DNA of 64,000 nucleotides, taken from positions 193,084 through 257,083 of the forward strand of contig JBAZSE010000001.1 of assembly GCA_041662565.1 (NCBI GenBank), given 5' to 3'. Position numbers and translations under genes: made by a program. Positions 5,423-54,072 of the stretch are shown piece by piece. The notes under the pieces are model-generated. The model saw only the letters and a list, made by a program, of their open reading frames with translations. It did no database searches and was not told the origin of the DNA. This DNA is from Patescibacteria group bacterium. GTDB lineage: Bacteria > Patescibacteriota > Patescibacteriia > UBA1558 > UBA10009. Position 1 is the stretch's first letter, and each line of letters opens with the position of its first letter.

Positions 5423-5428
5423 TTTGCC

Positions 5429-5911: not shown

Positions 5912-6282
5912 CCAACTTTAACGCTGCTCCCATCGAAGAACAGGTTAAAAATTTATTGGAACAGAATCTGGCTTATTCCAAGCAGATTTATTTAATCTCC
6001 AAAAAACTCAAGGCCTATATGCTTTTGGGTAGGATTATGAGCACCATCAGCATTTTGTTTGTGGTCGGACCTTTAATTTTAGGCCTGGTTTATTGGCAGG
6101 ATATCATGGGTTATGTTACCAGCGCCGTAATGCCGGTGGGTTTAGGGCAGGAGCAGGGGGCCTTGAATAATTTATTACCTGGCGGTAAAATTAATCAGCA
6201 GGATCTTTTAAAAGCCATTAATGATCAGGGAGGAATTTTTAACGCTTATAAAAATATCTTGGATTTAAACAATCAGCAGTAA
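5908..6282 (+). CDS. Hypothetical small membrane protein
   Basis: Start overlaps the upstream stop (ATGA); one TM helix. Confidence 0.3.
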   Translation: MTNFNAAPIEEQVKNLLEQNLAYSKQIYLISKKLKAYMLLGRIMSTISILFVVGPLILGLVYWQDIMGYVTSAVMPVGLGQEQGALNNLLPGGKINQQDLLKAINDQGGIFNAYKNILDLNNQQ

Positions 6283-6341
6283 ATAATTAACGACTAAACC
6301 AAACGGAGCCTAAAAAACTTTGTTTTTTAGTCAGCAAAATT

Positions 6342-7691: not shown

Positions 7692-7696
7692 GCTAT

Positions 7697-9016
7697 TTAC
7701 AGATATTTGGCAATTTCCCAGGGTGTAACTTCCAATCGCGCTTCTTGGATGTCCTGTTTTGATGCGGTTATAATGGCTTTAAGGGCATGTTCTCCTAAAA
7801 GTTTGGTTAACACTTCATCACGCTCCAACTCTGCCAGGGCCTCGGTTAAAGAGCCGGGCATGGTAGTTACGCCTTTGGTTTGCCTGGCTTGATCCGTTAA
7901 TAAGTAAACATTTTCTTCAATTGGTTCCGGTACGGTTAAATTATTTTTAATGCCATCCAAACCGGCTGCCAGCATGGCCGCAAAAGCCAAATACGGATTG
8001 GTTAAAGCATCCGGGCATCTAAGCTCAATTCTAGTTGATTGCGGCCTATTGGGGCTGATTTGTGGAATTCTGATTAAGGCCGAACGGTTAATAGTGCCCC
8101 AGCAAATATTAACAGGCGCTTCATAGCCTGGCACTAAGCGTTTGTAGGAATTAACCGTAGGATTAACAATGGCTGCCAAGGCGCGGGCATGCTTAAGTTG
8201 GCCCGCTAAAAAGTTATAAGCCAAAGGCGAAAGATGATAACGGTCAGTTGGGCTGTAAAACGCGTTAGTTGAACCATTAAACAAACTTTGATGAATATGC
8301 ATGCCCGAACCGTTAATGCCCATAATGGGTTTGGGCATAAAAGTAACTTTTAAAGTTTCTTCATTGGCATAGGCCTTAAGTGCCGCTTTAACGGTTAAAA
8401 CATTATCGGCGCTTTTTAAGGCGTTATCATACATCACGTCAATTTCGTGCTGGCCCTCAGCTACTTCATGATGATATGTTTCACCTCTAATGCCGAAATT
8501 TTTTAAGGAATCCATAACCCGTCGGCAAATGCGCGAGGCCCTGCTGGTGGGCGTGTAATCAAAGTAACCTTTATGGTCATGGGGCACTAATTCGGGCAAT
8601 TTATTTTTTTCAAATAAAAAGAATTCCAATTCGGCGGCCGTATAATAATCAAAGCCCAGAGTTGTTTTGGCTTCATTTAAGATTTTTTTTAATATATACC
8701 TGGGGTCTCCGGTAAAGGGCTGGCCATCGGGCAGATAAATATCGCAAATTACCCTGGCCGCTTTAAATTCGGTATTGGTCCAAGGCAAAATGGCAAAGGT
8801 GGAAAGATCCGGCTTTAACAGCATATCGCTTTCAAAAATACGGGCGTGGCCTGTTACCGAAGATCCATCGTACCAAGCGCCGTGAGCGCAGATATCCGCA
8901 AAGCGGTAGGCCTCGGTTTCCACTACTTTAATTTTACCCATCAAATCCGAAAATTGCAGCAAAATGGTTTTAACTTCTTGGTTTTTTATCAAGTCCTGAA
9001 TTTCTTCAAGATTCAT
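7697..9016 (-). CDS. glnA: Glutamine synthetase type I
   Basis: 439 aa; N-terminal beta-grasp region, YFDYTP, NGSGMHIHQS and NPY motifs typical of GS. Confidence 0.9.
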   Translation of the reverse strand: MNLEEIQDLIKNQEVKTILLQFSDLMGKIKVVETEAYRFADICAHGAWYDGSSVTGHARIFESDMLLKPDLSTFAILPWTNTEFKAARVICDIYLPDGQPFTGDPRYILKKILNEAKTTLGFDYYTAAELEFFLFEKNKLPELVPHDHKGYFDYTPTSRASRICRRVMDSLKNFGIRGETYHHEVAEGQHEIDVMYDNALKSADNVLTVKAALKAYANEETLKVTFMPKPIMGINGSGMHIHQSLFNGSTNAFYSPTDRYHLSPLAYNFLAGQLKHARALAAIVNPTVNSYKRLVPGYEAPVNICWGTINRSALIRIPQISPNRPQSTRIELRCPDALTNPYLAFAAMLAAGLDGIKNNLTVPEPIEENVYLLTDQARQTKGVTTMPGSLTEALAELERDEVLTKLLGEHALKAIITASKQDIQEARLEVTPWEIAKYL

Positions 9017-9316
9017 ATATTTGGCCTGTTGTAATTTATTAAATCCAACGGGCGATTAATGGTTAATTGATATTTTTTTATAGTGAAAAGCTCCTCTTGT
9101 GGAGGGGCTTGAATTTTTGAGGTTTTTTATTTTTTAGACAGTAAAAAAACTCAAGCCCCTCTTGAGTTTATTATTATTTTGATTACGGAAAATTTCTTGT
9201 TTCATAAATCAATAGTATAATTTTAATCCAACTGTTTTTATCTGGCAAGCACGTGAGTTGGGGATAAATCCTTTCTAATTGCTAAAGATAGGGGTTTTTG
9301 CTACAATTTCAATATT

Positions 9317-11343: not shown

Positions 11344-12717
11344 ATGGATAAATTATTTTTGTACAACACATTAACCCGCCAAAAGCAGGAATTTATCCCT
11401 TTAAAAAAGGGTAAAGTTGGTTTATACACTTGCGGGCCCACAGTTTATAATTTTGCCCATATCGGCAATTTGCGTACTTATATTTTTGAAGATATTTTGC
11501 GTCGGGTTTTGGAATACAATAAATACAAAGTTAAGCAGGTTATGAACATTACCGATGTTGGCCATTTAACTTCCGATTCCGATACCGGTGAGGATAAACT
11601 GGAAAAAGGTTCTGCCAGAGAAGGAAAATCCGTTTGGGAAATTGCCGAGTTTTATACCAAGGCCTTTCGTCAGGATTTGAAAAATTTGAATATCCAGGAA
11701 CCTGATAAATGGATTAAGGCAACCGAGACGATTAAAGAGCAAATTGATTTTGTTAAAAAGTTGGAGAAAAAAGGTTTAACTTATAAAACTTCCGACGGAA
11801 TTTATTTTGATACTGCCAGGTATATTGATTACCCTCATCTTGCCAAACTTAATTTAGCCGGACAACAAGAAGGCAGTCGGGTGGAAATAAATAATGAAAA
11901 AAAGAATCCGACCGATTTTGCGCTGTGGAAATTTTCGCCAAAAGATTCTACAAGACAGATGGAATGGAAATCGCCGTGGGGCGTTGGTTGGCCGGGCTGG
12001 CATTTGGAATGTTCGGCTATTAGCATTAAAGCACTGGGCAAGGAATTTGATATTCATACAGGAGGCATTGATCATATTCCCGTGCATCATACCAATGAGC
12101 GCGCGCAAAATTGGGGTTTGTTGGGCCAAGAAGCTGTTAGATATTGGTTGCATGGCGAATTTTTGGTAATCAACCAAGAAAAAATGGCAAAATCAGAAGG
12201 TAATTTTATTACTATCCAGTCCCTTAAAGATAAAGGCATTAATCCTTTGGCTTACAGATACTTTTGTTTGCAAGCGCATTACCGATCCAAACTGAATTTT
12301 AACTGGGAAGCGTTGCAGGCCGCGCAAAATGGTTATAATAATTTAATTAAAGAAATTTCAACTTTGGAAAAACCAAAAGGGGATTGTTTTGAATTTGAAG
12401 CCAAATTTACTCAAGCTATTAATGATGATTTAAATATGCCCGAGGCCCTGGCGATTGTTCAAAAATTATTAAAGTCGGATAATCCTTCATCGGCTAAAAG
12501 GGCTTCAATTATCAAATTTGACAAAGTTTTGGGCTTGGGGTTAAATACTTATAAAGTTGCCACTAAGATCAGTCCGGAAATTCAGCTATTAATAAATGCC
12601 AGACAAGAGGCCAGAAAAAATCAAGATTGGCACAAGTCGGATGAGTTAAGAAAAAAAATTGAAGATCAGGGGATTAAAATTCAGGATTTGTCTGATGGCG
12701 GGTATGAAATAGAGTAG
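11344..12717 (+). CDS. cysS: Cysteinyl-tRNA synthetase
   Basis: HIGNLRTY (HIGH motif), KMAKSEGN (KMSKS motif), CGPTVYN zinc site; 457 aa. Confidence 0.9.
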   Translation: MDKLFLYNTLTRQKQEFIPLKKGKVGLYTCGPTVYNFAHIGNLRTYIFEDILRRVLEYNKYKVKQVMNITDVGHLTSDSDTGEDKLEKGSAREGKSVWEIAEFYTKAFRQDLKNLNIQEPDKWIKATETIKEQIDFVKKLEKKGLTYKTSDGIYFDTARYIDYPHLAKLNLAGQQEGSRVEINNEKKNPTDFALWKFSPKDSTRQMEWKSPWGVGWPGWHLECSAISIKALGKEFDIHTGGIDHIPVHHTNERAQNWGLLGQEAVRYWLHGEFLVINQEKMAKSEGNFITIQSLKDKGINPLAYRYFCLQAHYRSKLNFNWEALQAAQNGYNNLIKEISTLEKPKGDCFEFEAKFTQAINDDLNMPEALAIVQKLLKSDNPSSAKRASIIKFDKVLGLGLNTYKVATKISPEIQLLINARQEARKNQDWHKSDELRKKIEDQGIKIQDLSDGGYEIE

Positions 12718-27372: not shown

Positions 27373-29454
27373 ATGGCTCGTAAATATCCATTGGAAAAAT
27401 ATCGCAACATTGGCATTATTGCCCACATTGACGCCGGCAAAACCACCGTTTCCGAACGTATTTTGTTTTACACCGGCAAAAAACATAAAATTGGCGAGGT
27501 GCACGAAGGCGCCGCCGAAATGGACTGGATGGAACAAGAAAAAGAGCGCGGCATTACTATTACTTCAGCCGCTACTACCTGTTTTTGGCAGGATTGCCAA
27601 ATTAACATTATTGATACTCCGGGCCATATTGATTTTACCGTTGAAGTCCAACGCTCTTTAAGGGTGTTGGACGGCGGTGTGGTGGTATTTGACGGCGTGG
27701 CCGGCGTGGAACCACAATCCGAAACAGTTTGGCATCAGGCCGAAAAATTTAAAGTTCCTCGTATTTGTTTTATCAATAAAATGGACCGCATGGGCGCGGA
27801 TTTTTATAAAGATGTGGCCTCCATTCACAATCGCTTAACCAAAGCGGCTTATCCCGTGCAATTGCCAATCGGCGCTGCCGAAACATTTAAAGGCATTGTG
27901 GATTTACTTGGACGTAAGGCCTATTATTACCGCGATGATTTAGGTAAGGATGTGGAAGAAACCGAAGTGCCGGAAGATATGAAAGAGTTGGTGGAAAAAT
28001 ACCGCGAACAGTTGTTTGAGGCCGTGGCTTCAACCGACGAGGTTTTGATGAATAAATTTTTGGAAGGCCAGGAAATTTCCATTGCCGAATTTAAAAAGGC
28101 CGCCAGGCAAGCGGTTATTACCAATCAATTAGTTTTGATTTTTTGCGGCAGTGCTTTAAAAAACAAAGGCGTTCAGTTTTTGTTGGACGCGGTTTGTGAT
28201 TATCTGCCTTCACCCTTGGATATTCCACCCTTGGAATGTTACGAGCCGGGCGATAAAGAGCATAAAATTATTCGCAAGCCCGAAGATACCGAACCGTTTA
28301 CGGCCTTGGCTTTTAAAATTGCCACCGACCCTTACGTGGGTAAATTATGCTTTTTTAGGGTATACGCCGGAACATTAAAAGCCGGTTCCTATATATACAA
28401 TACTTCAACCGGTGAAAAAGAAAGAGTTGGCCGTATTTTAATCATGCACGCCAATCACCGCGAAGAAGTGGACGAAGTTAACTCGGGCGATATTGCCGCC
28501 TTGATCGGCTTAAAGGCCACCTATACCGGCAATACTTTATGTGATGAAGATCATCAGGTTGTTTTGGAATCCATTACTTTCCCCGAGCCGGTTATTTCCA
28601 TTGCCATTGAGCCCAAAACCAAACAAGACCAGGAAAAAATGGGCAATGCCATGCAGAAACTTATGGAAGAAGATCCAACTTTCCGCGTTAAAACCGATGA
28701 AGAAACTTTGCAAACCATTATTTCCGGCATGGGTGAACTTCATTTGGATATTATTGTTGATAGAATGAAGCGTGAATTTAAAGTTGAATGCAATGTGGGT
28801 AAGCCCCAGGTTGCTTATCGCGAAACAATTAGAGGCGAAGCCGAAGCCGAAGGTAAATACATTAGGCAGTCGGGCGGACGCGGACAATACGGCCATTGTT
28901 GGATTAAGATTGAACCTCAAGAAAGAGGCAAGGGCTTTGAATTCGTGGATCAGATTAAAGGCGGTAGCATTCCCAAGGAATTTATCGCTCCGATCCAAAA
29001 AGGTATTAAAGAGGCCTCTGATAACGGCGTGTTGGCCGGTTACCCATTTGTTGATTTTAGAGCCACGGTGTTTGATGGTTCTTACCACGATGTTGACTCT
29101 TCCGAAGCGGCCTTTAAAATTGCCGGTTCTATGGCTTTTCAATCAGCCGCCCGTAAAGCCGGTTTGGTTTTGCTGGAGCCGATGATGAAAATTGAAATTG
29201 TGACTCCGGAAGAATTTATGGGCGATGTGATTGGCGATCTTAGCTCCAAGCGAGGCCAAATCAATGAAATGACCGAGCGCTCTCAAATGAAAGTCATTGA
29301 CGGTTCCGTACCGTTGGCTTCAATGTTTGGCTATGCCACTTCGCTTAGATCCTTAACTCAAGGTAGGGCTTCGTACTCCATGGAATTTGACCATTACGCC
29401 GAAGTGCCTAAAAACGTGGAAGCGGAAATCGTGGAAGCCAGAGGCAAAAAATAA
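27373..29454 (+). CDS. fusA: Elongation factor G
   Basis: [10 protein letters not shown]1 motif, [12 protein letters not shown]; 693 aa. Confidence 0.95.
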
Positions 29455-42510: not shown

Positions 42511-42553
42511 TAATTGACAAATTTTAAGGGTTTTGTAAAATAGAATAAATACA

Positions 42554-42600
42554 AACAGGGTCAAACAGCTATTATTAATGGCTTTGGCCTTTTTTTATTA
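42554..42600 (+). repeat. AAACAGGGTCAA element copy C (left copy of a 45-bp direct repeat), preceded by TTGACA-N16-TAAAAT
   Basis: aaacagggtcaaacagctattattaatggctttggcctttttttatta. Confidence 0.7.
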
Positions 42601-42670
42601 ACGACGTAGAGCGAGAGAAGCGAAAAGGTAATCTTTTCGCTTCCGAGCCGAGGAGTTAATATGTAATCAT

Positions 42671-42976
42671 ATGAAAATACAGATTTTGCCAGCAGTCAAT
42701 CAATTTGTATTTTCTTTAGACGAATCAATTATAGCCAAAGTTTTAAGAACTATTGATTTATTGGAAAGATTCGGCAATCAATTACAATTACCTCACAGTA
42801 AATCAGTTGGCCACCGCCTGTTTGAGTTAAGAATTCACGGCCGTCAAGAAATCCGTATTTTTTATGGTTATTATGAAAACAGAGCAATTTTGCTTCATGG
42901 TTTAATTAAAAAATCCAATAAAATTCCAAAACATGAATTAAGTACAGCTTATAGTCGTTTTAAAGATTTGACATAG
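42671..42976 (+). CDS. HigB/RelE-like (Gp49 family) type II toxin
   Basis: LFELRI..RIFYGYY..ILLHGLIKKSNKIPKHE pattern; toxin precedes an XRE antitoxin. Confidence 0.65.
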   Translation: MKIQILPAVNQFVFSLDESIIAKVLRTIDLLERFGNQLQLPHSKSVGHRLFELRIHGRQEIRIFYGYYENRAILLHGLIKKSNKIPKHELSTAYSRFKDLT

Positions 42977-43039
42977 TATAACATATACGTTATAATTGGC
43001 AATGAGTGAGGAGAGAAAATTTATTTTCTCTCCAAACGA

Positions 43040-43345
43040 ATGAACCAATTATATAAAATATACTTATTTTATATGGAATCCTATAAAAATTTTAAAAACA
43101 AGCTGTTAAAGAATCCAAATATTAAAAAGGCCTATGATGAATTAGGGCCTGAATTTGCCGTTATTCGGATGATTATAGCTAAAAGGCTCGCCGCTGGGCT
43201 TACCCAAACTCAGTTGGCTAAAAAATTGGGCACCAAGCAATCGGCTATTTCACGTCTGGAACAGGGATCGGCTAATCCATCCCTGGCTTTATTGGTTAAA
43301 CTTTCCAAAGCCCTTAATGCCAAGCTGGAAATTTCCATTTCTTAA
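43040..43345 (+). CDS. HigA-like XRE-family HTH antitoxin
   Basis: LTQTQLAKKLGTKQSAISRLEQG helix-turn-helix. Confidence 0.7.
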   Translation: MNQLYKIYLFYMESYKNFKNKLLKNPNIKKAYDELGPEFAVIRMIIAKRLAAGLTQTQLAKKLGTKQSAISRLEQGSANPSLALLVKLSKALNAKLEISIS

Positions 43346-43375
43346 AAGTATTAAGTTAAGGTGTGAAATTAAATT

Positions 43376-43573
43376 ATGATAAAAAATTTAAAAAATAAGA
43401 AAAATATTTGTAAACACGATTATAAAAATGCAGTACAGGTTGGCAATATTGATTATCAATGTCGTTTGTGTGGAAAATTACTCGATCCATGCGAGTGGTT
43501 TTTGATGAATAGTTTTGAATTTATTGATGTTGATGTAGTGAATAAAAAAATAACAAAAAAACGCCCTAGTTAA
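43376..43573 (+). CDS. Small zinc-ribbon-like protein
   Basis: CKHDY...CRLCGKLLDPC; 65 aa. Confidence 0.3.
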   Translation: MIKNLKNKKNICKHDYKNAVQVGNIDYQCRLCGKLLDPCEWFLMNSFEFIDVDVVNKKITKKRPS

Positions 43574-43688
43574 AGGGCCTTTTCAACCACGTTCCTATGC
43601 CGGTTGTCCCAGCCACGCCACCATCCGGTGACAGTTCGGAATACAGGTTTTTGTTTTTTTACGATATAATAACTTATTAACAGTGTCA

Positions 43689-43714
43689 AACCGCCCTCTC
43701 TGGGCGGTTTTTTG
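43689..43714 (+). terminator. Hairpin AACCGCCC-TCTCT-GGGCGGTT plus T6 in a GC-rich 220-nt spacer
   Basis: Read directly. Confidence 0.6.
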
Positions 43715-43797
43715 CACCCCAATCCACCACCGCCTGGTCCGCCTAGACGTAGTGCTGGCGGATTGCCAAACCAATATGAAAGTGGTACATTTTATAA

Positions 43798-44154
43798 ATG
43801 AATAATGATCAAAATACCAAACTCATTGAGCTTAAGGATTTCATTGATCAGTTTAGACAAGTCAGGGATTGGCAAAAATTCCATAACCCCAAGGATTTAG
43901 CCGAGGCCATAAGTGTGGAAGCGTCTGAGCTAATGGAATTGTTTTTATGGGGCGATAAACAGGAGTTTACCGATAAGGTTAATAACGATCCTGAATTTAA
44001 AACCAAGGTCAGTGATGAACTAGCTGATGTTTTAATCTACTGTATTGAATTTTCGCTTACCACGGGCATTGATCTATCAACTGCCATTATGGAAAAAATG
44101 ACCAAAAATGCTATTAAGTATCCGGTGGAGAAGGGTAAAAGGGAAGTTGGATAA
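43798..44154 (+). CDS. MazG-like nucleoside triphosphate pyrophosphohydrolase (all-alpha NTP-PPase)
   Basis: EASELMELF...DELADVLIYCIEFS EExxE/DxxxD motifs; 118 aa. Confidence 0.7.
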   Translation: MNNDQNTKLIELKDFIDQFRQVRDWQKFHNPKDLAEAISVEASELMELFLWGDKQEFTDKVNNDPEFKTKVSDELADVLIYCIEFSLTTGIDLSTAIMEKMTKNAIKYPVEKGKREVG

Positions 44155-44159
44155 GTATA

Positions 44160-44924
44160 ATGGGTTATGAAATTATGGCAAATTTAACCACGCTTGAAAA
44201 ACAGGTACTTGAAAAATTATTCCAAATGAATGGTGGTTATGTTTTGAATTTTTCAGATCGGACAATGAGAGAGTTTTTTAGAGACGATATAGGAATTGAT
44301 ATTTACAATCAAAAATATAACTATTTAAGCGGTTCAAAAGCTAATCGTATGCGTGGTTTGTGGTTAGAGGCAGATGAGAAAACTGTAGGTAAAAGTTTGT
44401 TGAAACTTATTGAATACATTGAAAATGAAATTTTGCTTGATAATTTAAAGCGAGTAGATTTTCCGAACGATAGAATGACCACTGTAAAAAATATTGGGGA
44501 AAAACTTCTTGGAACAAAAATAAAAATGGAAAATAAATCGCAAGCTACTTTTAAAAATGGCAACATAAATATAACCTTACAAAAAGAAGTTTTTGATCAT
44601 GTGCAAAAATTGTTGAATAGCGGGCATTATTTTAATGCCGTAGAAGAAGCTTATAAAATTGTTAGAAAAAAATTAAAAGACATTTCAGGAAAAGAGAAAG
44701 CTACAGATGCTTTTAGTTATGAAAATTGCGAAAAGATTTTTGGACATCCGCCTGTCGATGATGCAGAAAATGATTTTTTTGAAGGTATAAAATTTTTGCA
44801 TATGGCAATCCAGTTTTTAAGAAACGAAAAGGCGCACACGCCAGCTCGTGATCTCGATAAAAATTTAGCCATTCACTACATTTCGCTTGCTAGTTTGGCG
44901 TATGATCTAATAACCAGAAAATAA
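44160..44924 (+). CDS. HEPN-domain protein (Rx4H motif; TIGR02391-like)
   Basis: C-terminal FLRNEKAHTP matches HEPN Rx4-6H; alpha-helical; 254 aa; 5 nt after mazG-like. Confidence 0.5.
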   Translation: MGYEIMANLTTLEKQVLEKLFQMNGGYVLNFSDRTMREFFRDDIGIDIYNQKYNYLSGSKANRMRGLWLEADEKTVGKSLLKLIEYIENEILLDNLKRVDFPNDRMTTVKNIGEKLLGTKIKMENKSQATFKNGNINITLQKEVFDHVQKLLNSGHYFNAVEEAYKIVRKKLKDISGKEKATDAFSYENCEKIFGHPPVDDAENDFFEGIKFLHMAIQFLRNEKAHTPARDLDKNLAIHYISLASLAYDLITRK

Positions 44925-44926
44925 TC

Positions 44927-45910
44927 ATGACGAATAAATCATCAAATAAAAACTTGCGTAAGGCAAGCCAAGCAAAGAAAGACGAGTTTTATACCCAACT
45001 TTCTGATATTGAAAATGAGCTTAAGCATTATAAAGATCAATTTCGTGGCAAAGTGGTATTTTGTAATTGTGATGACCCCAAAGAAAGCAATTTTGTCAAA
45101 TATTTCAGCATGAATTTTGAGCATTTAGGATTGAAGAAATTAATCGCCACGCACTATAAAGATGCGAATTTGTTTACTAAAGAAGCGCCATATAAATTGG
45201 AATACACCGGCGATAAAAACGGTAATCGCACACCCGATCCGAGTGAATTCATGAAAAAGATGATTGGTACGGGCGACTTCCGTAGCGAAGAATGTATCAA
45301 ACTGCTTAAAGAAGCCGATATAGTGGTGACCAACCCGCCATTTTCTCTATTCCGTGAATACGTTGCGCAGCTTATCGAATACAGGAAGAAATTTTTGATT
45401 ATGGGTAATCAAAATGCGATTACTTATAAAGAAATTTTTAAATTAATTAAAGAGAATAAGATGTGGCTCGGGCAAAGTCTAAATGGTAAAAATATCTTAT
45501 TTGAAATTCCAGATTATTATGAAAGTTACTACAAAATTATAGGCGGTAAAAAATATGCATTTCCAAAAGGTGTAGTATGGTTTACTAACCTTGATGTGCC
45601 AAAACGAAGTGAAGAAATGGTATTGTACAAGAAGTATATTAAAAAAGATTATCCTACATATGATAATTATGATGCGATAAATATCGACAGGACAGAACAG
45701 ATTCCTCTAGATTATGCTGGAGGCATGGGCGTGCCGATTACTTTTTTACATAAATACAATCCTAAGCAATTTGAGATTTTAGATGGGCTTAATCGTTATA
45801 GTATTTTATTTGGACCCACTAAGGAAACTAGAGGTAAATATTTAGCACAAATAAATGGTAAGCCTATTTATGTTCGAATTGTAATTAAAAACAAGAAAGT
45901 AAAAAAATAA
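44927..45910 (+). CDS. N6-adenine DNA methyltransferase-like protein (NPPF motif IV)
   Basis: VVTNPPFSLF catalytic motif; EFYTQ N-terminus; 327 aa; 2 nt after the HEPN gene. Confidence 0.6.
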   Translation: MTNKSSNKNLRKASQAKKDEFYTQLSDIENELKHYKDQFRGKVVFCNCDDPKESNFVKYFSMNFEHLGLKKLIATHYKDANLFTKEAPYKLEYTGDKNGNRTPDPSEFMKKMIGTGDFRSEECIKLLKEADIVVTNPPFSLFREYVAQLIEYRKKFLIMGNQNAITYKEIFKLIKENKMWLGQSLNGKNILFEIPDYYESYYKIIGGKKYAFPKGVVWFTNLDVPKRSEEMVLYKKYIKKDYPTYDNYDAINIDRTEQIPLDYAGGMGVPITFLHKYNPKQFEILDGLNRYSILFGPTKETRGKYLAQINGKPIYVRIVIKNKKVKK

Positions 45911-45911
45911 T

Positions 45912-47003
45912 ATGAAAATTGAATTACATAAAATTCCAGTATATAAGGTGATTGCCGGTTACAGGGATAGCGCCGAGGAGGGCGTGGTGGCTTATAGCGG
46001 TAAACTTGATATTCGTCCGAAGTATCAGCGTGAGTTTGTCTACAAGGGTCACCAGCGTGACGCCGTTATAAAGACAATCAAAAACGGTTTTCCTCTTAAC
46101 GTGATGTATTGGGTTAAAACTGACGAGGGTAACTTTGAGGTTTTAGACGGCCAACAGCGTACTATTAGCGTAGGCCAATATGTAAACGGAGATTTTTCAC
46201 TTAATGATCGTTTTTTTCATAACTTGACTAATGAGGAACAAAGGCAGATTTTGGATTATGAACTCATGATTTATTTTTGCGAGGGCACGGACAAAGAACG
46301 GCTAGACTGGTTCAGGATAATTAATATTGCTGGAGAAAAATTGACTGACCAGGAATTGCGCAATGCAGTGTACACCGGCTCATGGTTGAGTGATGCTAAA
46401 TTGAAATTTAGCAAATCAAACTGTGCGGCATATCATCTAGCAAATGATGGCGGACAATTAGTAAGTGGATCACCAATACGACAAGAGTATTTGGAAACGG
46501 CACTTTCGTGGATTAACGATGGCAAGATAGAGGACTACATGGCTAAGCATCAGCATAATAAGAACGCTGACGAGCTGTGGGAATATTTTCAGAGTGTAAT
46601 TGCATGGGTACGAAAGACTTTTACAAATTATCGTCGAGAAATGAGCGGTGTACAATGGGGCGAACTGCATAACAAATTCAAAGACAAGAAACTGAACGCT
46701 GGCAAATTAGAAGCCGAAATCAAAGATTTAATGCAAGATGAAGATGTAACGAAAAAATCCGGTATTTATCCGTATGTTTTAACTCAAAATGAAAAATTTC
46801 TAAACATCCGTGCTTTTACCGATAAACAAAAGAGAGAGGCCTACGAAAGACGGAAAGGCGTTTGTGCAAAGTGTAAAAAATCTTTTGAAATTGGAGAAAT
46901 GGAAGCTGATCATATAAAACCTTGGCATGAGGGCGGTAAAACTGTTTCAGAAAATTGCCAGATGTTATGTAAGCAAGATAACAGAACTAAGTCTGGAAAA
47001 TAA
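45912..47003 (+). CDS. DUF262 (ParB-like, DGQQR motif) fused to a C-terminal HNH endonuclease
   Basis: IRPKYQREFVY and VLDGQQRTISVG DUF262 signatures; CAKCKK..EADHIKPWHEGGKTVSENCQMLCKQDNRTK HNH motif; start 1 nt after the MTase stop. Confidence 0.7.
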   Translation: MKIELHKIPVYKVIAGYRDSAEEGVVAYSGKLDIRPKYQREFVYKGHQRDAVIKTIKNGFPLNVMYWVKTDEGNFEVLDGQQRTISVGQYVNGDFSLNDRFFHNLTNEEQRQILDYELMIYFCEGTDKERLDWFRIINIAGEKLTDQELRNAVYTGSWLSDAKLKFSKSNCAAYHLANDGGQLVSGSPIRQEYLETALSWINDGKIEDYMAKHQHNKNADELWEYFQSVIAWVRKTFTNYRREMSGVQWGELHNKFKDKKLNAGKLEAEIKDLMQDEDVTKKSGIYPYVLTQNEKFLNIRAFTDKQKREAYERRKGVCAKCKKSFEIGEMEADHIKPWHEGGKTVSENCQMLCKQDNRTKSGK

Positions 47004-47094
47004 AAACGGCAGTATTAAGATTTAATAGATTGTATGTATTTATTGCAAAATTTTAAGAAAAGTGATAAAGTCATGGTGAATTATCTATAAAAAT

Positions 47095-48120
47095 ATGGAC
47101 AAAAAAGCATTTATTCAACAAATTGAAAAATTAAGGAATTCTAAGGTTATTACCTATTTAACTAGTGATAGGCAGGGTCCTGTTAACGCTAGAATTGCCA
47201 TGGATATAGTGCCTATTATAAGCAAGCAGTTAATGGCTATTGGTAAAACTGAAAATATCGATCTATTTTTGTATAGTTCGGGTGGCGACACCATGGTGCC
47301 ATGGAGATTGGTTTCCATGATCCGCGAATACTGCGAAAAATTTTCAGTTATCATTCCATATAAAGCTCATAGTTCCGCAACTATGATTTCTTTAGGCGCT
47401 GATGAAATTGTTATGAGTAATCTTTCAGAGCTTTCGCCAATTGATCCATCAACAGCTAATGTTTTTAATCCTAGTGATCCACAGAATCCTCAAAATAAAA
47501 TTCCTATCTCTGTAGAAGATGTGATGGCTTATTTTGATCTAGCAAAGAATAAGTTTGGCATTAAAAATGACGAAGATCTGGCTAAGATTTTTAATAAATT
47601 TGTGGAAGCCAATCCTCAAATTCATCCTTTGGCCCTAGGTAATATTAATAGGACTCATAATTTAATACGTAACCTCGCTAAGCGTTTACTAAAAAGTCAT
47701 AAAACGCCAATGAGGGAAGAAGAAATTGGTAAAATTGTTGATGATTTTACGGAAAAACTATATTCCCACCAATATTTTATTGGTCGTAAAGAAGCTAAGG
47801 AGGATTTAGGTTTAAAAAATGTTGTTTTTGCTGATGAAAGTTTAGCTAAAGCAATGACCGATTTATACGAAGAATATGCTAGGGAAATGGAATTTGGGAT
47901 TATGTGGAGTCCGGAAAATGAACTTGGTCTTAATGTTATGCAAAACACGAAAGATTATAAGATTGCTTTTATTGAGAGTGATAGTATTATTAATTGTTTT
48001 GAGTTAAAAATTGAATATAGGAAACAACAGATTAATATTATTCAACAAACTCCTCAGGGTCCAATCCAGGTGCCTCAAGAGCAGGTTGGATTTAAGATCG
48101 TTGAGCAGGGTTGGAAATAA
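47095..48120 (+). CDS. SDH-family (S49/ClpP-fold) serine protease
   Basis: LYSSGGDTMVPWRLVSMIRE..AHSSATMISLGADEIVM matches the SDH/ClpP-fold Ser nucleophile region; 341 aa. Confidence 0.55.
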   Translation: MDKKAFIQQIEKLRNSKVITYLTSDRQGPVNARIAMDIVPIISKQLMAIGKTENIDLFLYSSGGDTMVPWRLVSMIREYCEKFSVIIPYKAHSSATMISLGADEIVMSNLSELSPIDPSTANVFNPSDPQNPQNKIPISVEDVMAYFDLAKNKFGIKNDEDLAKIFNKFVEANPQIHPLALGNINRTHNLIRNLAKRLLKSHKTPMREEEIGKIVDDFTEKLYSHQYFIGRKEAKEDLGLKNVVFADESLAKAMTDLYEEYAREMEFGIMWSPENELGLNVMQNTKDYKIAFIESDSIINCFELKIEYRKQQINIIQQTPQGPIQVPQEQVGFKIVEQGWK

Positions 48121-48147
48121 ACTTTAATTAACATAAAAAATTTAACT

Positions 48148-48537
48148 ATGTCAAAACCAGTATTAAATTATATTATAATTTGTGAATCAGTGATAGTATC
48201 AGAGGATGGAAAATTTTCTATATTAAATATTTTTAGTGAAATTAATGCTAAACAATTTCCCGCAGCCCATCCAAAATTTGTTATTGTTAGTAATACCAAG
48301 GGGGAGCCTGGTAATTATAAACAAAAAATAGAAATCGTTAATTTACAAGATAATTCAGTAGCGGCTAAGGTTGAGTCAAGTTTTGGAATTAAAGAGGGCG
48401 GTATTAATGTTTTTTTTGGCAATTTTGTTAACACCATTTTTAATAATTCTGGCAAATATTGGATAAAAGTTACTTATGATGATAAAGATGTGGTCACTAA
48501 TGAAAATGATAACTTTTTCTTTGTTAAGCAGTTATAG
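48148..48537 (+). CDS. Hypothetical beta-rich small protein
   Basis: 129 aa, no motif. Confidence 0.3.
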   Translation: MSKPVLNYIIICESVIVSEDGKFSILNIFSEINAKQFPAAHPKFVIVSNTKGEPGNYKQKIEIVNLQDNSVAAKVESSFGIKEGGINVFFGNFVNTIFNNSGKYWIKVTYDDKDVVTNENDNFFFVKQL

Positions 48538-48539
48538 TT

Positions 48540-49082
48540 GTGTATATGAAAAATTTTGAGTTTAAAACAAATGATGATACTTCTACTACGACCAAGTCTG
48601 ATACATTAATCAGCGAAAGCGAGATAGGGGGAACTTTAAAATTTTTAAATGATCAAATTGTCAAGTTACAAGATAAGGCTAATGAGACAGCTGAAGATTT
48701 TAATCGTTTGGAAGGGCGTACTAACGTATTTAGTAATTTTATAATGGGATTAACATCTTTAGTAGCCGGAGTATTTTTTATTAGTGGAATATTTATTTTT
48801 TTAGATTATTGGAAATATAACCCGGAAAGGTTTGAAAAATTTATGGATAAAACAGAAGAAATTAAAGATAATTTTTATACAAAACAAGAAATGGATAAAA
48901 ATATCAATAATCATTATTTAACTATTAAAGATCAGTTAAATAAGGCTTTTGGCTTTGAAGTGGATTTAGATAATCAAAGTCAAGAGCTTGGGGAATTACG
49001 CAAGAGCAATGAATATTTATTAAAAGTAATTAATTGCCAAAAGGATAAGAGATATTGGCAATTTGAACAATGTTATAAATAA
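48540..49082 (+). CDS. Hypothetical single-TM protein with flanking coiled coils
   Basis: TM LTSLVAGVFFISGIFIFL; 3-nt gap after the previous gene. Confidence 0.3.
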   Translation: MYMKNFEFKTNDDTSTTTKSDTLISESEIGGTLKFLNDQIVKLQDKANETAEDFNRLEGRTNVFSNFIMGLTSLVAGVFFISGIFIFLDYWKYNPERFEKFMDKTEEIKDNFYTKQEMDKNINNHYLTIKDQLNKAFGFEVDLDNQSQELGELRKSNEYLLKVINCQKDKRYWQFEQCYK

Positions 49083-49227
49083 TAAATATTTTTTATTTTA
49101 TAAAATTTTTCCCTTTCTGTGGGATTTTTTATTTTCTTGATCCCCCTCTAAAATCATGCTATAATTCCTAAACAATTTAAATAAATTTGGCCTAAACTCT
49201 AGCTATTGCTGGGGCATGGTATAAAAT

Positions 49228-49325
49228 CGTTGAACACATCCAACCCGTCATTCAGGGCGTGTTCAACGTTGCGTAGGGAAACTTACGTAAGGCCCGCAAG
49301 GGCCTCCTGGTGGCGGGTTTTGTGT
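49228..49325 (+). other. GC-rich structured element (10-bp IR, GNRA hairpin GGCCC-GCAA-GGGCC, terminator-like CCCGC..GCGGGTTTT) in the leader of ORF 49370
   Basis: cgttgaacac..gtgttcaacg; ggcccgcaagggcc; gcgggtttt read directly. Confidence 0.4.
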
Positions 49326-49369
49326 TTCCGACATTTTAAGTCAGTCATTATTAACTAACTTTTTGTTTT

Positions 49370-49831
49370 ATGCAAACAACAAAAAATAAGGAAGAAATAA
49401 TCAACAAAATTTTAAATATTATTGAAACAGCCAAGCGTGAACAAATAGCTTATGATGTGCCAGATTGCGAGGGAGCGTTATGCTTTGATCTGGATTTTAG
49501 TGATATTACCCAGGCGGAAAAGTATAAAATTGGAGGTATTGCCCTGCATGTTTTTGGCGATTACGTAAAAAAGAGGGTCACTAAAGTGGAACAATCAGCT
49601 ATGTTAAAAATCGGCCAAGATGTGATGCTTGGTTCTTTTTTGGCGGCTAGGTTAGGGCATAAGGAGCTCTCGGACGAAATAACCAGGCGTTTGCTGGAAG
49701 CCCGATTGGGTTTACTAAAAGAAAACAAGGAGTTTAATTTTTATGAGCTTTTAGATCAGCAGTTTACGGAATATTTGGAGTTTTGCCAGCAGTATGACAG
49801 TCAAATTGCTTTGGAAAGAGGGGTTGTTTAA
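49370..49831 (+). CDS. Hypothetical protein
   Basis: 153 aa. Confidence 0.3.
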   Translation: MQTTKNKEEIINKILNIIETAKREQIAYDVPDCEGALCFDLDFSDITQAEKYKIGGIALHVFGDYVKKRVTKVEQSAMLKIGQDVMLGSFLAARLGHKELSDEITRRLLEARLGLLKENKEFNFYELLDQQFTEYLEFCQQYDSQIALERGVV

Positions 49832-49874
49832 GATATCTAAGTTGAGCAAAACTTTTTAAAATGGTAGTATTTAT

Positions 49875-50447
49875 ATGATGATAAAAAATCAAATAAAGCT
49901 ACATCAAAAGAATATTAAATATACTCTTCGAGTTAGCGCACGGGCACGGCAAATGAGGTTGGCGATATACTGTGACGGTAATTTTGTAGTTACGGTTCCG
50001 CAAAATGTGAGTGCTAATATTATAGAACAATTTATTATTACCAAGGCGCAGTGGATACTTAATAAATTGGAATATTTTAAAAGTATTGCTGGGCGGGTAT
50101 TTCCGGGCGGAAATAAAAAAGAGTATTTACAATATAAAGATAAGGCGCAGGTGCTGGCGCAAGAAAGGATAGGGTATTTTAATCAAACCTATAATTTTAA
50201 ATTCCATAAAATCAATATTAAAAATCAAAAGTCCCGCTGGGGCAGTTGTTCTAAAAAAGGCAATTTAAATTTTAATTATAAAATAGCTTTGCTTTCAGCG
50301 CGTTTGGCTGATTATATTATTGTCCACGAATTGTGTCATTTAGGGGAATTTAATCATTCCCGCAAGTTTTGGAATTTGGTGGCCTGCGTGATACCTGATT
50401 ATTTGGCCAGAAGAAATGAATTAAAGAAAAATAGAATTAAAAAATAA
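49875..50447 (+). CDS. YgjP-like (DUF45/M48-like, WLM-type) metal-dependent hydrolase
   Basis: C-terminal VHELCHLGEFNHSRKFW HExxH..H motif. Confidence 0.65.
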   Translation: MMIKNQIKLHQKNIKYTLRVSARARQMRLAIYCDGNFVVTVPQNVSANIIEQFIITKAQWILNKLEYFKSIAGRVFPGGNKKEYLQYKDKAQVLAQERIGYFNQTYNFKFHKINIKNQKSRWGSCSKKGNLNFNYKIALLSARLADYIIVHELCHLGEFNHSRKFWNLVACVIPDYLARRNELKKNRIKK

Positions 50448-50450
50448 AAT

Positions 50451-51674
50451 ATGAAAATAAATAATTATCTCAAATTAGTTATCACCGTTTTAGTTTCTTT
50501 ATCAGCCGGTTATCTTGGTTCATTTTTTACTACCCCGGCTATTCCCACTTGGTATGCCAATCTTGTTAAACCGGCTTTAAATCCGCCCTCATGGGTGTTT
50601 GCGCCCGTGTGGACCATTTTGTTTATTTTAATGGGTATTGCCGCGTATTTAGTGTGGCAAAAAGGTTTTAAACGGCAAGAAGTTAAATACGCTTTGGTTA
50701 TTTTTGCGGGCCAACTGATTTTAAATATTGTTTGGTCGGGTATTTTTTTTGGCTGGCAAAACCCGGGTGTTGCCTTTTTGGAATTAATTGTTTTATGGCT
50801 GGCGATTTTATCAACCATCAAGGTTTTTGCCAAAGTTTCTAAAACCGCGGCTTGGCTGTTAGTGCCATATATTTTATGGGTCAGTTTTGCCGGCTATTTA
50901 AATTTTTCCATCTGGCAGCTTAATAATTCGCCTGCGGTGGTAAAAAACAATTCTATTTTTGATCCCCAAAATTGTGCTTATGTTATAGAAGATCAGCCCG
51001 TTGTTTTAACTAATGGCTTAAGCGTGCAGGATGTTGTTGATGCCAACGCCAAAATTACCACCAAATATTTTGGCAATCAAGTTAATGCCGATTTTAATGC
51101 TGATGGTTTGGTTGATGTTGCTTTTTTGGCAACGCAAACTTCGGGCGGAAGTGGAACATTTTATTATACGCTGGTGGCTTTAAATACTTCTACTGGTTGC
51201 CAGGGTTTGGCAGCAGATTTTATCGGGGATAGAATTGCTCCGCAAACTACCGAATTTAAAGATGAGATGATTATCGTAAATTACGCCGATCGTAAAGCTA
51301 CTGAAAGTTTTGATGTGGCGCCATCAATTGGTTTAAGTAAATACTACAAAATTATTGATGGGCAGTTAAGAGCGGTTGTGCCGCCAATGTTGGATTACCG
51401 TAACGATCCAACCGTATTGGCTATTCAAAAAATGCTGATTGCCAAATATCCCAAGTATGCCAAAACCTTAGCCGTTAACCTTAGGCAGCAAACCGATATT
51501 TACGCTGTGGGTGCCATTAGTTTTGAGCCCGGTGAAGCCGGTGGCCAGTATTTAGCCGTAAAAGAAGGGGATAGCTGGCAATTGGTTTACGAAGGCAATG
51601 GCAGTGTTGATTGCGTTGCCATTAAGCAAAATTATCAATTTCCAACCGAAATGCTAGCCGGCTTTTGTGATTAA
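50451..51674 (+). CDS. TspO/MBR (tryptophan-rich sensory protein) domain fused to a roughly 250-aa C-terminal beta-rich domain
   Basis: Five TM helices with Trp-rich loops (PSWVFAPVWTILFILMG); long soluble C-terminus. Confidence 0.6.
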   Translation: MKINNYLKLVITVLVSLSAGYLGSFFTTPAIPTWYANLVKPALNPPSWVFAPVWTILFILMGIAAYLVWQKGFKRQEVKYALVIFAGQLILNIVWSGIFFGWQNPGVAFLELIVLWLAILSTIKVFAKVSKTAAWLLVPYILWVSFAGYLNFSIWQLNNSPAVVKNNSIFDPQNCAYVIEDQPVVLTNGLSVQDVVDANAKITTKYFGNQVNADFNADGLVDVAFLATQTSGGSGTFYYTLVALNTSTGCQGLAADFIGDRIAPQTTEFKDEMIIVNYADRKATESFDVAPSIGLSKYYKIIDGQLRAVVPPMLDYRNDPTVLAIQKMLIAKYPKYAKTLAVNLRQQTDIYAVGAISFEPGEAGGQYLAVKEGDSWQLVYEGNGSVDCVAIKQNYQFPTEMLAGFCD

Positions 51675-51730
51675 AAATAATGTATCAAATTTGACAAAGG
51701 TAGTTATTTTTCTTAAGATATTAATATAAT

Positions 51731-51776
51731 AAACAGGGTCAAGTAGCTATTATTAATGGCTTTGGCCTTTTTTATT
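51731..51776 (+). repeat. AAACAGGGTCAA element copy D (right copy of the 45-bp direct repeat), preceded by TTGACA-N17-TAAGAT
   Basis: aaacagggtcaagtagctattattaatggctttggccttttttattt; about 95% identical to copy C. Confidence 0.7.
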
Positions 51777-51779
51777 TCC

Positions 51780-52172
51780 ATGGATAAAGAATTTCAAAAA
51801 TGGCATTCTAAAAAAGAAAAATTACATAATGAAGCGTTAAGGTTGTTTTTTCATGAAAGAGAAGTTTGGTGGTGTTCTTTGGGGGTGAATATAGGTTTTG
51901 AACAAGATGGTAAGGGGGTTATTTTTTCTAGACCTATCCTGGTCCTAAAAAAATTTAACAACGAGGTATTTTGGGCATTATCCTTAACTACTAAGATAAA
52001 ACAGGGCAAGTTTTATGCCCCAGTTATTCTAAATGATAATGTACCCAGGTGTGTGATTGTTTCTCAGCTTCGTTTGATTGATGCTAAGCGGCTCATTGAT
52101 AAAATCGGCACAATCGGCAAAGAAAATTATAATCAAATTAAAAAAACAACCATAAATCTTTTTGATTCATAG
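51780..52172 (+). CDS. MazF/PemK-like toxin-fold protein
   Basis: G.EQDGKGVIFSRPILVL...ALSLTTK resembles the PemK GxEQxGxRPxLVxS..PxTS pattern; start taken after the repeat. Confidence 0.5.
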   Translation: MDKEFQKWHSKKEKLHNEALRLFFHEREVWWCSLGVNIGFEQDGKGVIFSRPILVLKKFNNEVFWALSLTTKIKQGKFYAPVILNDNVPRCVIVSQLRLIDAKRLIDKIGTIGKENYNQIKKTTINLFDS

Positions 52173-52316
52173 TCGTTCATTTCTGGGTAGCTTTTTTAGA
52201 GCCAACCCGAGGCCGAAGCCATTTATAAATATACTTTAACATATCAATAAAGCTTGTCAAGACGGTTATTTGACAAAACCCTTTATTTTCAATAAGATAA
52301 GCCGACAAAACACTAT

Positions 52317-52574
52317 ATGGAACGTCTTAAAGAAATTATTGAATTAATAGAAATAACCGGCGATAAATGCATTATTTTACAGCCGGATAAAGGGGCTTAT
52401 GTTGTCATGAAAATGTCGGATTATAGAGTTTTGGTGGAAAATGGCTTAAAAATAAGGCCAACTCCACAAATCAGCTCTTTTGCCAGGCCCGAAACAGATA
52501 TAAAACTGTACGAAATTCCCCAAATTGGCCAAAAAAACGCTGAAGCAGATATTTATTATCCCGAACCTGCTTAA
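52317..52574 (+). CDS. Phd/YefM-like antitoxin-fold protein
   Basis: ITGDKCIILQPDKGAYVVMKMSDYRVL pattern; preceded by the TTGTCAA-N10-TTGACAA operator-like IR. Confidence 0.5.
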   Translation: MERLKEIIELIEITGDKCIILQPDKGAYVVMKMSDYRVLVENGLKIRPTPQISSFARPETDIKLYEIPQIGQKNAEADIYYPEPA

Positions 52575-52884: not shown

Positions 52885-54072
52885 ATGGCTGAAGCATTTG
52901 ATCGCTCAAAGCCCCACGTCAATATCGGAACCATTGGTCACGTTGACCACGGCAAAACCACCTTAACCGCCTGTATTTTAAATTACATCGCGGCTACCGG
53001 CGGTAAAGCCCAAAAGAAAAACGTTGATCAGATTGATAACGCTCCGGAAGAAAAAGAGCGCGGTATTACTATTGCCACTGCTCACGTGGAATATGAAACA
53101 GCCAAAAGGCATTATGCCCACGTTGACTGTCCAGGACACGCCGACTACGTTAAAAACATGATTACCGGCGCAGCTCAGATGGACGGCGCAATTTTAGTCG
53201 TTAGCGCTGCTGACGGCCCTATGCCTCAAACCCGCGAGCACATTTTGTTGGCTCGTCAGGTTGGTGTACCTTATATTGTAGTTTTCTTAAACAAAGTAGA
53301 TCAAGTTACCGATCCTGAATTAATTGATTTGGTTGAAGAAGAAGTTAGGGATTTATTGAAGAAATATGAATTCCCTGGCGATGAAACCCCAATTATCAGA
53401 GGTTCGGCTTTAAAGGCCTTGGAAGATCCAAAAGGTGAATACGGCGCCGCTATTCAAAAACTGTTGGATGCCGTTGATAGCTACATTCCGGAACCTGTTA
53501 GAGATATTGCCAAACCTTTCTTAATGCCTGTTGAAGATATCTTTTCCATTGAAGGCCGCGGCACCGTTGTTACCGGTAGAATCGAAAGAGGCGTGGTTAA
53601 AATCAATGAAGAATTGGAAATTATCGGTTTGGGTGATACTAAAAAAACCGTTATTACCGGTATTGAAATGTTTAACAAGTCCTTGGACGAAGGCCGAGCT
53701 GGCGATAATGCCGGATTGCTTTTAAGAGGCACTAAAAAAGAAGAAATTCAAAGAGGTCAGGTTTTGGCTAAACCGGGTAGTGTTACCCCTCATGCCGAAT
53801 TTGAATCCGAAGTTTATATCTTAAGCAAGGATGAAGGCGGTAGACACACTCCTTTCTTTAAGGGCTATAAACCTCAATTCTACATTAGAACCACCGATGT
53901 TACCGGAGAAGTGGAATTGCCGGAAGGCGTGGAAATGGTTATGCCTGGGGATACCATTACCTTCAAAATTAAGTTAATTCAACCGGTTGCTTTGGAAGAA
54001 AAGCAGAGATTTGCCATTCGAGAAGGCGGTCATACTGTTGGCGCCGGCGTTGTAACCAAGTTTATTAAATAA
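52885..54072 (+). CDS. tuf: Elongation factor Tu
   Basis: [22 protein letters not shown]; 395 aa. Confidence 0.95.

Follow-up and report, generated by a model that had tools for sequence, protein, structure and literature searches.

The arrangement considered here comes close to two kinds of described system. One is the genomic island integrated between attL and attR, which it resembles in having two near-identical direct repeats of ~45 bp, ~9 kb apart, around low-GC defence genes and beside a housekeeping gene. The other is the leader attenuator built as an intrinsic terminator, in which an A-tract, a stable stem-loop and a U-tract lie between a promoter and an open reading frame (ORF); here, too, the element also lies downstream of a preceding operon. 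The locus belongs to a 64-kb stretch of a Patescibacteria metagenome-assembled genome (contig JBAZSE010000001.1, 809 kb), referred to below as the window, and all copy counts of the repeat are counts within it. A preliminary description of this DNA had seen the repeats as possible att-like boundaries of an exchangeable island. We consider it probable, though by no means certain, that one conserved leader hairpin, close to the promoter, is present here as two paralogous copies, each belonging to a toxin cassette; one cassette encodes HigB and its partner HigA, the other a solitary MazF-like protein. To our knowledge, nothing is known experimentally about gene regulation in Patescibacteria, and a full-text literature search found no description of such a module at the toxin–antitoxin (TA) loci of these organisms.

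The two cassettes and their repeats are arranged as follows.

42514-42541, + strand: higBA promoter, TTGACA-16-TAAAAT, conserved in its spacer (consensus scan, 11/12)
42553-42596, + strand: left repeat, AAACAGGGTCAAACAGCTATTATTAATGGCTTTGGCC plus T7, then ATT; a AAACAGGGTCAAAC... stem-loop with U7, part of the higB leader
42597-42670, + strand: leader2, a structured 5'-untranslated region, ATTAACGACGTAGAGCGAGA-hairpin-CGAGCCGAGGAGTTAATATGTAATCAT (predicted fold; no Rfam match)
42671-42976, + strand: higB, toxin of the Gp49/RelE fold (Pfam)
42968-42996, + strand: higA promoter, TTGACA-17-TATAAT, a perfect consensus inside the 3' end of higB (promoter scan)
43073-43345, + strand: higA, with an Xre helix-turn-helix (Pfam)
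51691-51719, + strand: promoter of the mazF-like cassette, TTGACA-17-TAAGAT (consensus scan, 10/12)
51731-51773, + strand: right repeat, AAACAGGGTCAAGTAGCTATTATTAATGGCTTTGGCC plus T6, then ATT; the same hairpin with U6, 6 nt before the mazF-like ATG and lacking a Shine–Dalgarno (SD) sequence
51780-52172, + strand: solo gene for a 130-aa MazF/PemK-like toxin (Pfam and PHROG matches)

The start of the mazF-like gene is placed at 51780 because nearly all of its 1342 homologues are 129-131 aa long. That the window holds two near-identical repeats, distinguished by two substitutions and one T, is confirmed: 41 of 43 aligned positions agree, and the left T-run is longer by one. Both copies lie where the preliminary description put them, apart from the start of the left one, which is one base earlier (42553) and otherwise immaterial. 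The mismatched positions (AC vs GT) are next to each other and constitute the 2-nt unpaired bulge of the predicted hairpin. Even when three mismatches are tolerated, the window has just two occurrences of a 23-nt core of the repeat, and 100 dinucleotide-preserving shuffles have none; a repeat search of the whole window found no third copy. The exact core has no match in IMG/VR or in 185,579 GTDB species genomes. A stem-only pattern did give 13 matches in JGI metagenome contigs, all of them in high-GC coding sequence and attributable to chance. The patch of identity, 45 nt long, is exactly the hairpin from A-tract to U-tract; beyond it the flanks of the two copies cannot be aligned except at the promoter hexamers, and the sequences on its right are unrelated. 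The pair is not an assembly artefact, because in independent Logan assemblies, from two different sequencing runs, both copies and the unique sequence on either side of them are found at 100% identity, the left one in L001 and the right one in L042 and L043.

On the + strand the left copy folds with -14.7 kcal/mol (z -3.8) and is followed by U7, and the right copy folds with -17.1 kcal/mol (z -3.5) and is followed by U6; the minus strand of both folds no better than shuffled sequence. Each copy is thus predicted to form a stem-loop closed by the A-tract and U-tract and completed by a U-run, which is the shape of an intrinsic terminator, and both would presumably act as terminators in vivo. A sigma-70-like, near-consensus promoter ends 11 nt upstream of each copy, according to a consensus scan, and that on the left begins 4 nt past the tal stop codon. 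From the left U-run to the start of higB there are 74 nt. The combination with a promoter is selective: the window has 13 strong + strand terminator-like hairpins, and a TTGACA...TAnnnT promoter is found within 130 nt upstream of only three, at 36150, 42554 and 51732, all of the AAACAGGGTC type.

Evidence that the hairpins belong to the genes on their right comes from other genomes. Six other Patescibacteria genomes have the succession of promoter, AAACAGGGTC hairpin, U-run and ATG at orthologues of HigB, the MazF-like protein and NYN, with different hairpin interiors. The MazF-like orthologue in L054 (77% identical) is preceded by TTGACA-17-TAAAAT, 9 nt, a hairpin AAAACAGGGTC...ACCTTG, U5 and 9 nt before the ATG, and that in L046 (73%) by TTGACA-17-TAAGAT and AAACAGGGTCAAAC-hairpin-U7, after which comes a second element; the promoter and hairpin of the right copy are arranged in the same way as at these two loci. 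The 5' 14-mer and the 3' arm of the left repeat are homologous to the hairpin upstream of the L046 gene. HigB orthologues in L055, L056 and L057 are 70-77% identical (in L055, 70% for HigB and 92% for HigA), and each stands behind a module of the form TTGACA-RAT(T/C)YYAARGGTTTTG-TAAGATA, 8-11 nt, a AAACAGGG(T)C hairpin, CCCTGTTTTT, 3-9 nt and ATG. The left promoter is one mismatch away from the 29-nt consensus TTGACAAATTTTAAGGGTTTTGTAAGATA found upstream of these three orthologues; because it matches the HigB type, the left copy can be assigned to the higBA cassette and not to the flank of tal. The module in L055 lies downstream of a divergently transcribed gene, which argues that it belongs to the toxin gene after it and not to the gene upstream. 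The left and right promoters are of different types. Both repeats are, as these sequence comparisons indicate, native conserved leaders of the genes on their right. In general, the module in Patescibacteria comprises a promoter, 8-14 nt, a hairpin (an A-rich stretch and a CAGGGTC 5' arm with a variable interior) and a U-run, with the start codon of a toxin or nuclease 3-21 nt past the U-run and usually no SD sequence.

The two repeats are members of a wider hairpin family. AACAG(G/T)GTCAA(A/G) followed by a hairpin and a T-run occurs five times in the window, always intergenic and always on the + strand, and a screen for hairpins with T-runs showed that the five elements open with the 12-mer AACAGGGTCAAA or a one-mismatch variant of it. 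The positions concerned are listed here.

12736, + strand: family element between cysS and comEC
36150, + strand: family element between an Mrr-like gene and the NYN gene
42554, + strand: family element between tal and higB
51732, + strand: family element between tspO and the mazF-like gene
43679, + strand: AACAGTGTCAAA element, which on the opposite strand is the -35 region of the DUF3800-IX promoter

The 12-mer is found three times exactly and four times with one mismatch in the 64 kb; six of the seven matches are on the + strand and five lie in intergenic hairpins, the sole match on the minus strand being the 3' arm of the 12736 hairpin. When promoter and 5' arm are combined in one regular expression, the window gives three matches (shuffles predict 0.055), and seven genomes together give 11 modules, followed by HigB, MazF-like, NYN or another ORF. 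All 15 curated members of the family are predicted to fold (z -3.5 to -7.2), with interiors that resemble one another neither in sequence nor in length; the loop, the inner stem and the 3' arm are common only to the 42554 and 51732 elements. The common terminator-like element that had been envisaged as an outcome speaking against an island is thus essentially what the repeat has proved to be. In the spacer between Mrr and NYN the module is present both in the window and in L015, the relative discussed below, with the -35 box and the 5' arm conserved and the rest diverged; L015 keeps the TTGACA promoter at this orthologous site, and the hairpin interior has changed. The 5' arm exists in genome-specific 'dialects', AACAGGGTCAAA in the window and L044 (position 1220) and AAAAGGGTCAAA in L015 (positions 255 and 5138), even in the Mrr–NYN spacer. 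A minus-strand promoter (TTGACC on the opposite strand) was considered as the cause of this conservation and rejected, the GGGTC members having no consistent -10 box; it does account for the separate AACAGTGTCAAA element at 43679. Resemblances to CtsR and CsrA motifs were rejected on sequence.

A family of this kind might consist of small mobile hairpins, similar to REP or MITE elements, of which two landed by chance at the ends of the block. It is true that the element is discrete, with sharp borders of identity, and that the intergenic members share a conserved arm. Such an origin deserves almost no credence, however: only two near-identical copies exist in the 64 kb, they show neither a target-site duplication nor terminal inverted repeats beyond the stem, and the window has no visible Y1/RAYT transposase. 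Moreover, members at orthologous positions in the window and L015 have diverged interiors, and the register between promoter and ATG is fixed.

Two further RNA elements accompany the cassettes. The 74 nt of leader2 are predicted to form a long hairpin that pairs the SD sequence GAGGAG, and in the window the higB ATG is closely preceded by an ATG-TAA mini-ORF. The flanking blocks of leader2, ATTARCGACGTAGAGCGAGA-variable hairpin-CGAGCCGAGGAGYTAATATGTAMTCAT, recur identically in L046 (5940-6000) upstream of the MazF-like gene; the inner hairpin is entirely different there, and the outer stem has an A-U to G-C compensatory change. Leader2 is absent before the HigB orthologues of L055, L056 and L057. 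The other element overlaps the 3' end of the mazF-like gene.

52260-52233, minus strand: promoter of the antisense small RNA (sRNA), TTGACA-16-TAAAGT (promoter scan)
52225-52140, minus strand: predicted convergent antisense sRNA, overlapping the mazF-like 3' end

This RNA would begin with 5' UAAAYGGCUUCGGCCUCG, containing an invariant GGC-UUCG-GCC hairpin (UUCG tetraloop); a second hairpin, which covaries, would follow, and the terminator would overlap the last codons of the toxin gene. Together with a TTGACA-16-TAnnnT promoter it is found in five genomes (the window; L046, 6361-6476; L049, 6361-6483; L054, 450-567; L055, 2532-2633), and compensatory changes affect eight of the 26 predicted pairs when four genomes are aligned. 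It may be the RNA partner, in the manner of type I systems, of the MazF-fold toxin, which has no adjoining protein antitoxin gene in five genomes. Neither the hairpin nor leader2 nor the mazF 3' region corresponds to an Rfam family, at gathering or at permissive thresholds, and searches of IMG/VR with the MazF-like protein, the leader2 pattern and the 3' motif gave nothing useful; the leader element is apparently undescribed.

It could also be proposed that the repeats are themselves two copies of a gene for a trans-acting sRNA, whose ~50-nt transcript serves the RNase toxins as an RNA antitoxin or decoy and is selected for its sequence. A promoter directly followed by a terminator is indeed the anatomy of an sRNA gene, the MazF-like toxin lacks a neighbouring protein antitoxin in the five genomes, the 5' arm is conserved beyond what pairing needs, and both differences between the copies are confined to the bulge. 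We nevertheless regard the proposal as improbable, since the interiors vary between genomes and within L055 and L056, leaving only a 10-nt 5' arm conserved, and since the module also stands before higB, which has a protein antitoxin, and before NYN and comEC. There is no tandem array of the type III antitoxin kind, and the mazF-like gene is already accompanied by the separate and better-conserved antisense sRNA.

What the repeats enclose can be judged against a relative. The closest genome found by means of Tal is L015, a metagenome-assembled genome of Ca. Komeilibacteria (Tal 80% identical), which is collinear with the window from 35.9 to 61.7 kb. In the window tal runs to 42510 and tuf begins at 52885. 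L015 has the order tal, ACP-like ORF, 86-aa gene, tuf; 580 bp, which hold the ACP-like ORF, stand there in place of window positions 42511-52266, none of the proteins of the block is encoded in this tal–tuf locus, and the interval has no copy of the repeat. The block is accessory, as the preliminary description had it, within the revised limits 42511-52266: this segment of ~9.75 kb is supported as a lineage-specific accessory insertion of mosaic make-up. The mosaic was probably assembled in several events, given that its GC content drops unevenly to 0.29-0.39, two independent RNA genes interrupt it (DUF3800-IX on the minus strand, and LOOT), and the neighbours of higBA differ between genomes, being the mazF-like gene in L055 and a MazG-like gene in L056. 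The intervening content is not constant. What L015 lacks begins 42 nt before the left copy, and so takes in the left promoter, and ends ~490 nt past the right copy, so that it includes the mazF-like gene and the antisense RNA. The mazF-like gene, absent from L015, is accordingly outside the repeat-bounded block and inside the variable segment. Homology then resumes.

52267-52574, + strand: right flank, with a promoter (52270-52298) and a conserved 85-aa gene (52317-52574)

The product of the 85-aa gene, which lies directly upstream of tuf, is 56% identical in amino acids to that of the L015 gene at 11443-11703, and the promoter is conserved. It has a weak Phd/YefM-like match; as it is kept in L015, where the locus has no MazF-like gene, we take it to be a core gene and not the antitoxin of its neighbour. 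At the outer edges of the segment missing from L015 lies a 17-nt inverted repeat (42526-42542 and 52267-52283, 16/17 complementary), whose arms fall in the spacer of the HigB-type promoter (AAGGGTTTTGTAAAATA) and in the promoter of the 85-aa gene (TATTTGACAAAACCCTT); either a shared operator or chance in AT-rich promoters may account for it. L015 has, for its part, a four-gene insertion between tkt and a LOG-family gene (5196-9123) that is absent from the window, with a family hairpin (GGGTCAAAAAAA...TTTTTTGACCC) at its left edge and none at its right. The distant Tal relatives P0005 and P0006 were considered as empty sites and set aside, synteny downstream of tal being lost in both.

These limits bear directly on the idea of a classical integrated element, for which the repeats would be attL and attR, the terminator downstream of tal would be attB, and the integrase would have been lost or would be encoded elsewhere. 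Near-identical direct repeats do flank low-GC accessory genes beside a housekeeping gene; in addition, L044 (Tal 82% identical) has CAGGGTCAAA 45 nt past the tal stop, spaced as in the window, at which point its contig ends, and a family hairpin at this site may thus be ancestral. The presence/absence limits, however, do not coincide with those of the repeats, the right copy is a conserved native leader of mazF-like genes in other genomes, and the left copy stands behind a HigB-type promoter. The absence of an integrase, already remarked upon in the preliminary description, holds up, as no integrase, transposase or other recombinase was found among the ORFs of 42.6-52.6 kb with Pfam, NCBIfam, PHROGs and PADLOC; nor were excisionase, replication or transfer genes found, or phage or plasmid hallmark genes. 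Neither repeat is at a tRNA or tmRNA gene, the only tRNA of the window being at 21.5 kb, and the 23-nt core, as noted above, is missing from IMG/VR and the GTDB species genomes. Att-like boundaries are thus not supported, and we judge an integrated element highly improbable.

More deserving of attention is the suggestion that the hairpins are boundaries for RecA-type recombination, the 9.2-kb block entering or leaving by crossover between leader hairpins at a hotspot of cassette exchange, or, in a variant, by a single crossover of circular or transformed DNA that carried one copy. The two hairpins are 41/43 identical whereas other members of the family differ in the interior, and they lie near both ends of the segment absent from L015. 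Their uninterrupted match of 29 bp is close to the shortest that RecA-type recombination can use. Leader2 is found on the mazF-like gene in L046 and on higB here, which implies that leaders and ORFs have been reshuffled, and the different neighbours of higBA in L055 and L056 imply that cassettes have been rearranged between genomes. Were the DNA between the copies deleted, the result would be a canonical promoter-hairpin-mazF cassette of the L054 kind, and the window contains comEC. Against this, the variable segment reaches past both repeats, the HigB-type promoter makes the left junction look native rather than hybrid, and the uneven, modular composition of the block suggests several events. 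No recombinase was found, and an alternative junction, be it an empty site with a single hybrid copy or an excision junction, is present in none of the assemblies on record, which come from at least two samples. On balance this explanation is, in our view, unlikely.

Several points weigh against the two-leader interpretation that we favour. Near-identical copies would equally result if a crossover had taken place in the hairpin as the block was inserted, and their near identity calls for an explanation when the hairpins within L055 and within L056 are divergent. The association of leader2 with the MazF-like gene in L046 and with higB here hints at recombination of leaders. It is the sequence of the 5' arm that is conserved, not merely its ability to pair, and a leader function leaves this unexplained. 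The empty-site comparison involves one collinear and fairly distant relative (L015), and both the promoters and termination are predicted only from consensus and conservation.

If the repeats are paralogous leaders, the bracketing of the block follows from the presence of a toxin cassette at each end of the insertion 42511-52266. To explain the near identity we favour a recent intragenomic event in which short-patch gene conversion, or recombination of one leader with the other, copied the 45 nt, because the patch of identity coincides with the hairpin and the promoters to its left differ in type. The mechanism that we envisage is as follows. Transcription would start ~5 nt before the A-tract, and the nascent hairpin and U-run would end most transcripts at ~50 nt as a short hairpin RNA. 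Only read-through would give toxin mRNA, and this would be poorly translated, the AUG abutting the hairpin with no SD sequence; at the left copy the AUG would instead lie behind the second, SD-pairing structure, leader2. The same hairpin would also stop polymerases arriving from the operon before it, that of tal on the left and that of tspO on the right. The RNase toxins would thereby be kept at very low levels, below those of the antitoxin, higA having its own perfect-consensus promoter.

A bolder proposal joins regulation with exchange. A portable unit of promoter, AAACAGGGUC hairpin and U-run would, across Patescibacteria, both gate toxin and defence cassettes by premature termination, constitutive or regulated, and supply the short homology by which they are swapped; the twin 45-nt copies would be regulatory leaders and, at the same time, crossover points for gain or loss of the 9-kb block, and the solo MazF-like protein with its antisense sRNA would constitute an RNA-controlled toxin system, similar to type I or type III. 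As a whole we hold this to be quite unlikely.

The remaining genes of the block had been correctly named in the preliminary description, as had those of its flanks, according to Pfam, NCBIfam, PHROGs and PADLOC. The features between the two cassettes are given below.

43376-43573, + strand: Zn-ribbon-like ORF of 65 aa (ORF list; weak PHROG matches only)
43649-43581, minus strand: DUF3800-IX RNA (Rfam RF02968; 54.2 bits vs a gathering score of 36.8)
43689-43661, minus strand: promoter of the DUF3800-IX RNA, TTGACA-17-TATCGT (promoter scan)
43798-51674, + strand: mosaic of defence and accessory genes (profile searches)
49189-49305, + strand: LOOT RNA (Rfam RF03000; 79 bits)

The mosaic comprises genes for a MazG-like protein, a Ymh/HEPN protein, an M.EcoRI-like methyltransferase, a DUF262-HNH type II restriction endonuclease, an SDH protease, DUF6941, two unknown proteins, YgjP and a TspO fusion, together with the LOOT RNA. 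Positions 44927-47003 hold a complete type II restriction-modification pair, consisting of the M.EcoRI-like adenine methylase (Pfam, 5.8e-128) and the DUF262(GmrSD_N)-HNH enzyme, which matches the PADLOC REase_II model from end to end (1.2e-134). The DUF3800-IX promoter has 21 nt identical in L055, and Pfam finds no DUF3800 domain among the genes of 38.9-54.5 kb. The LOOT RNA lies between ORFs for unknown proteins of 180 and 153 aa, and is preceded at 49137-49165 by a promoter-like TTGATC-17-TATAAT with an extended TG. Two observations concern the window at large. The usual rpsL-rpsG-fusA-tuf order is broken: fusA (27373-29454) and tuf (52885-54072) are ~23 kb apart, and the gap holds a P-type ATPase gene, DsbB, the Mrr-like and NYN genes, pentose-phosphate genes and the accessory block. 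In the first ORF, three tandem units of ~66-69 nt (243-421) encode Asp-rich 'DSDGDG' repeats similar in appearance to calcium-binding type-3 repeats.

The case carries a caution for island hunting: where accessory genes have direct repeats on both sides, these can be regulatory elements of the cassettes, related as paralogues, and not the scars of integration. It also presents a recurrent cis-element, a predicted intrinsic terminator that separates the start codons of RNase toxin genes from their promoters. Should it operate as proposed, reduced genomes would have in it a simple way of keeping toxin and defence genes nearly silent, and of insulating them from read-through in long co-directional gene arrays. 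Leader2, which is common to different toxin genes, and the antisense sRNA are candidates for RNA-based control of a MazF-fold toxin.

How, then, does the locus compare with known systems? It differs from islands between attL and attR in that no integrase is present, the limits of repeats and insertion disagree, no one-copy empty site has been found and the repeats are, in other genomes, functional parts of downstream genes. Nor does it resemble an array of integron attC sites, having no integrase and only two copies, which bracket 13 ORFs. As in REP/BIME elements and DNA uptake sequences (DUS/USS), there are short intergenic palindromes with a conserved arm and genome-specific dialects; unlike these, the elements here number ~5 per 64 kb, keep a strict orientation and register behind promoters, and are not seen as exact copies in coding sequence, whereas uptake sequences occur at very high density, in both orientations and inside genes. 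At the right copy, promoter, structured RNA and terminator precede an RNase toxin without antitoxin, as in the type III TA systems ToxIN, CptIN and TenpIN. The differences are that TRF finds no tandem array near 42.5 or 51.7 kb, that the toxin is of the MazF/PemK family and not ToxN/AbiQ, and that the module also precedes higBA, a type II pair with a protein antitoxin. A convergent antisense RNA, running from promoter to terminator over the 3' end of the toxin gene, recalls the type I systems txpA/RatA and bsrG/SR4; here, however, the RNA antitoxin is predicted, and the toxin is a 130-aa protein of the MazF fold instead of a small membrane peptide. In layout the element is like a leader terminator or attenuator. 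It departs from such leaders in offering no recognisable antiterminator fold, leader peptide, riboswitch aptamer or T-box-like sensor, in having a 5' arm whose sequence is conserved across genomes when its interior is not, and in setting the ATG of most members 3-9 nt past the U-run with no SD sequence.

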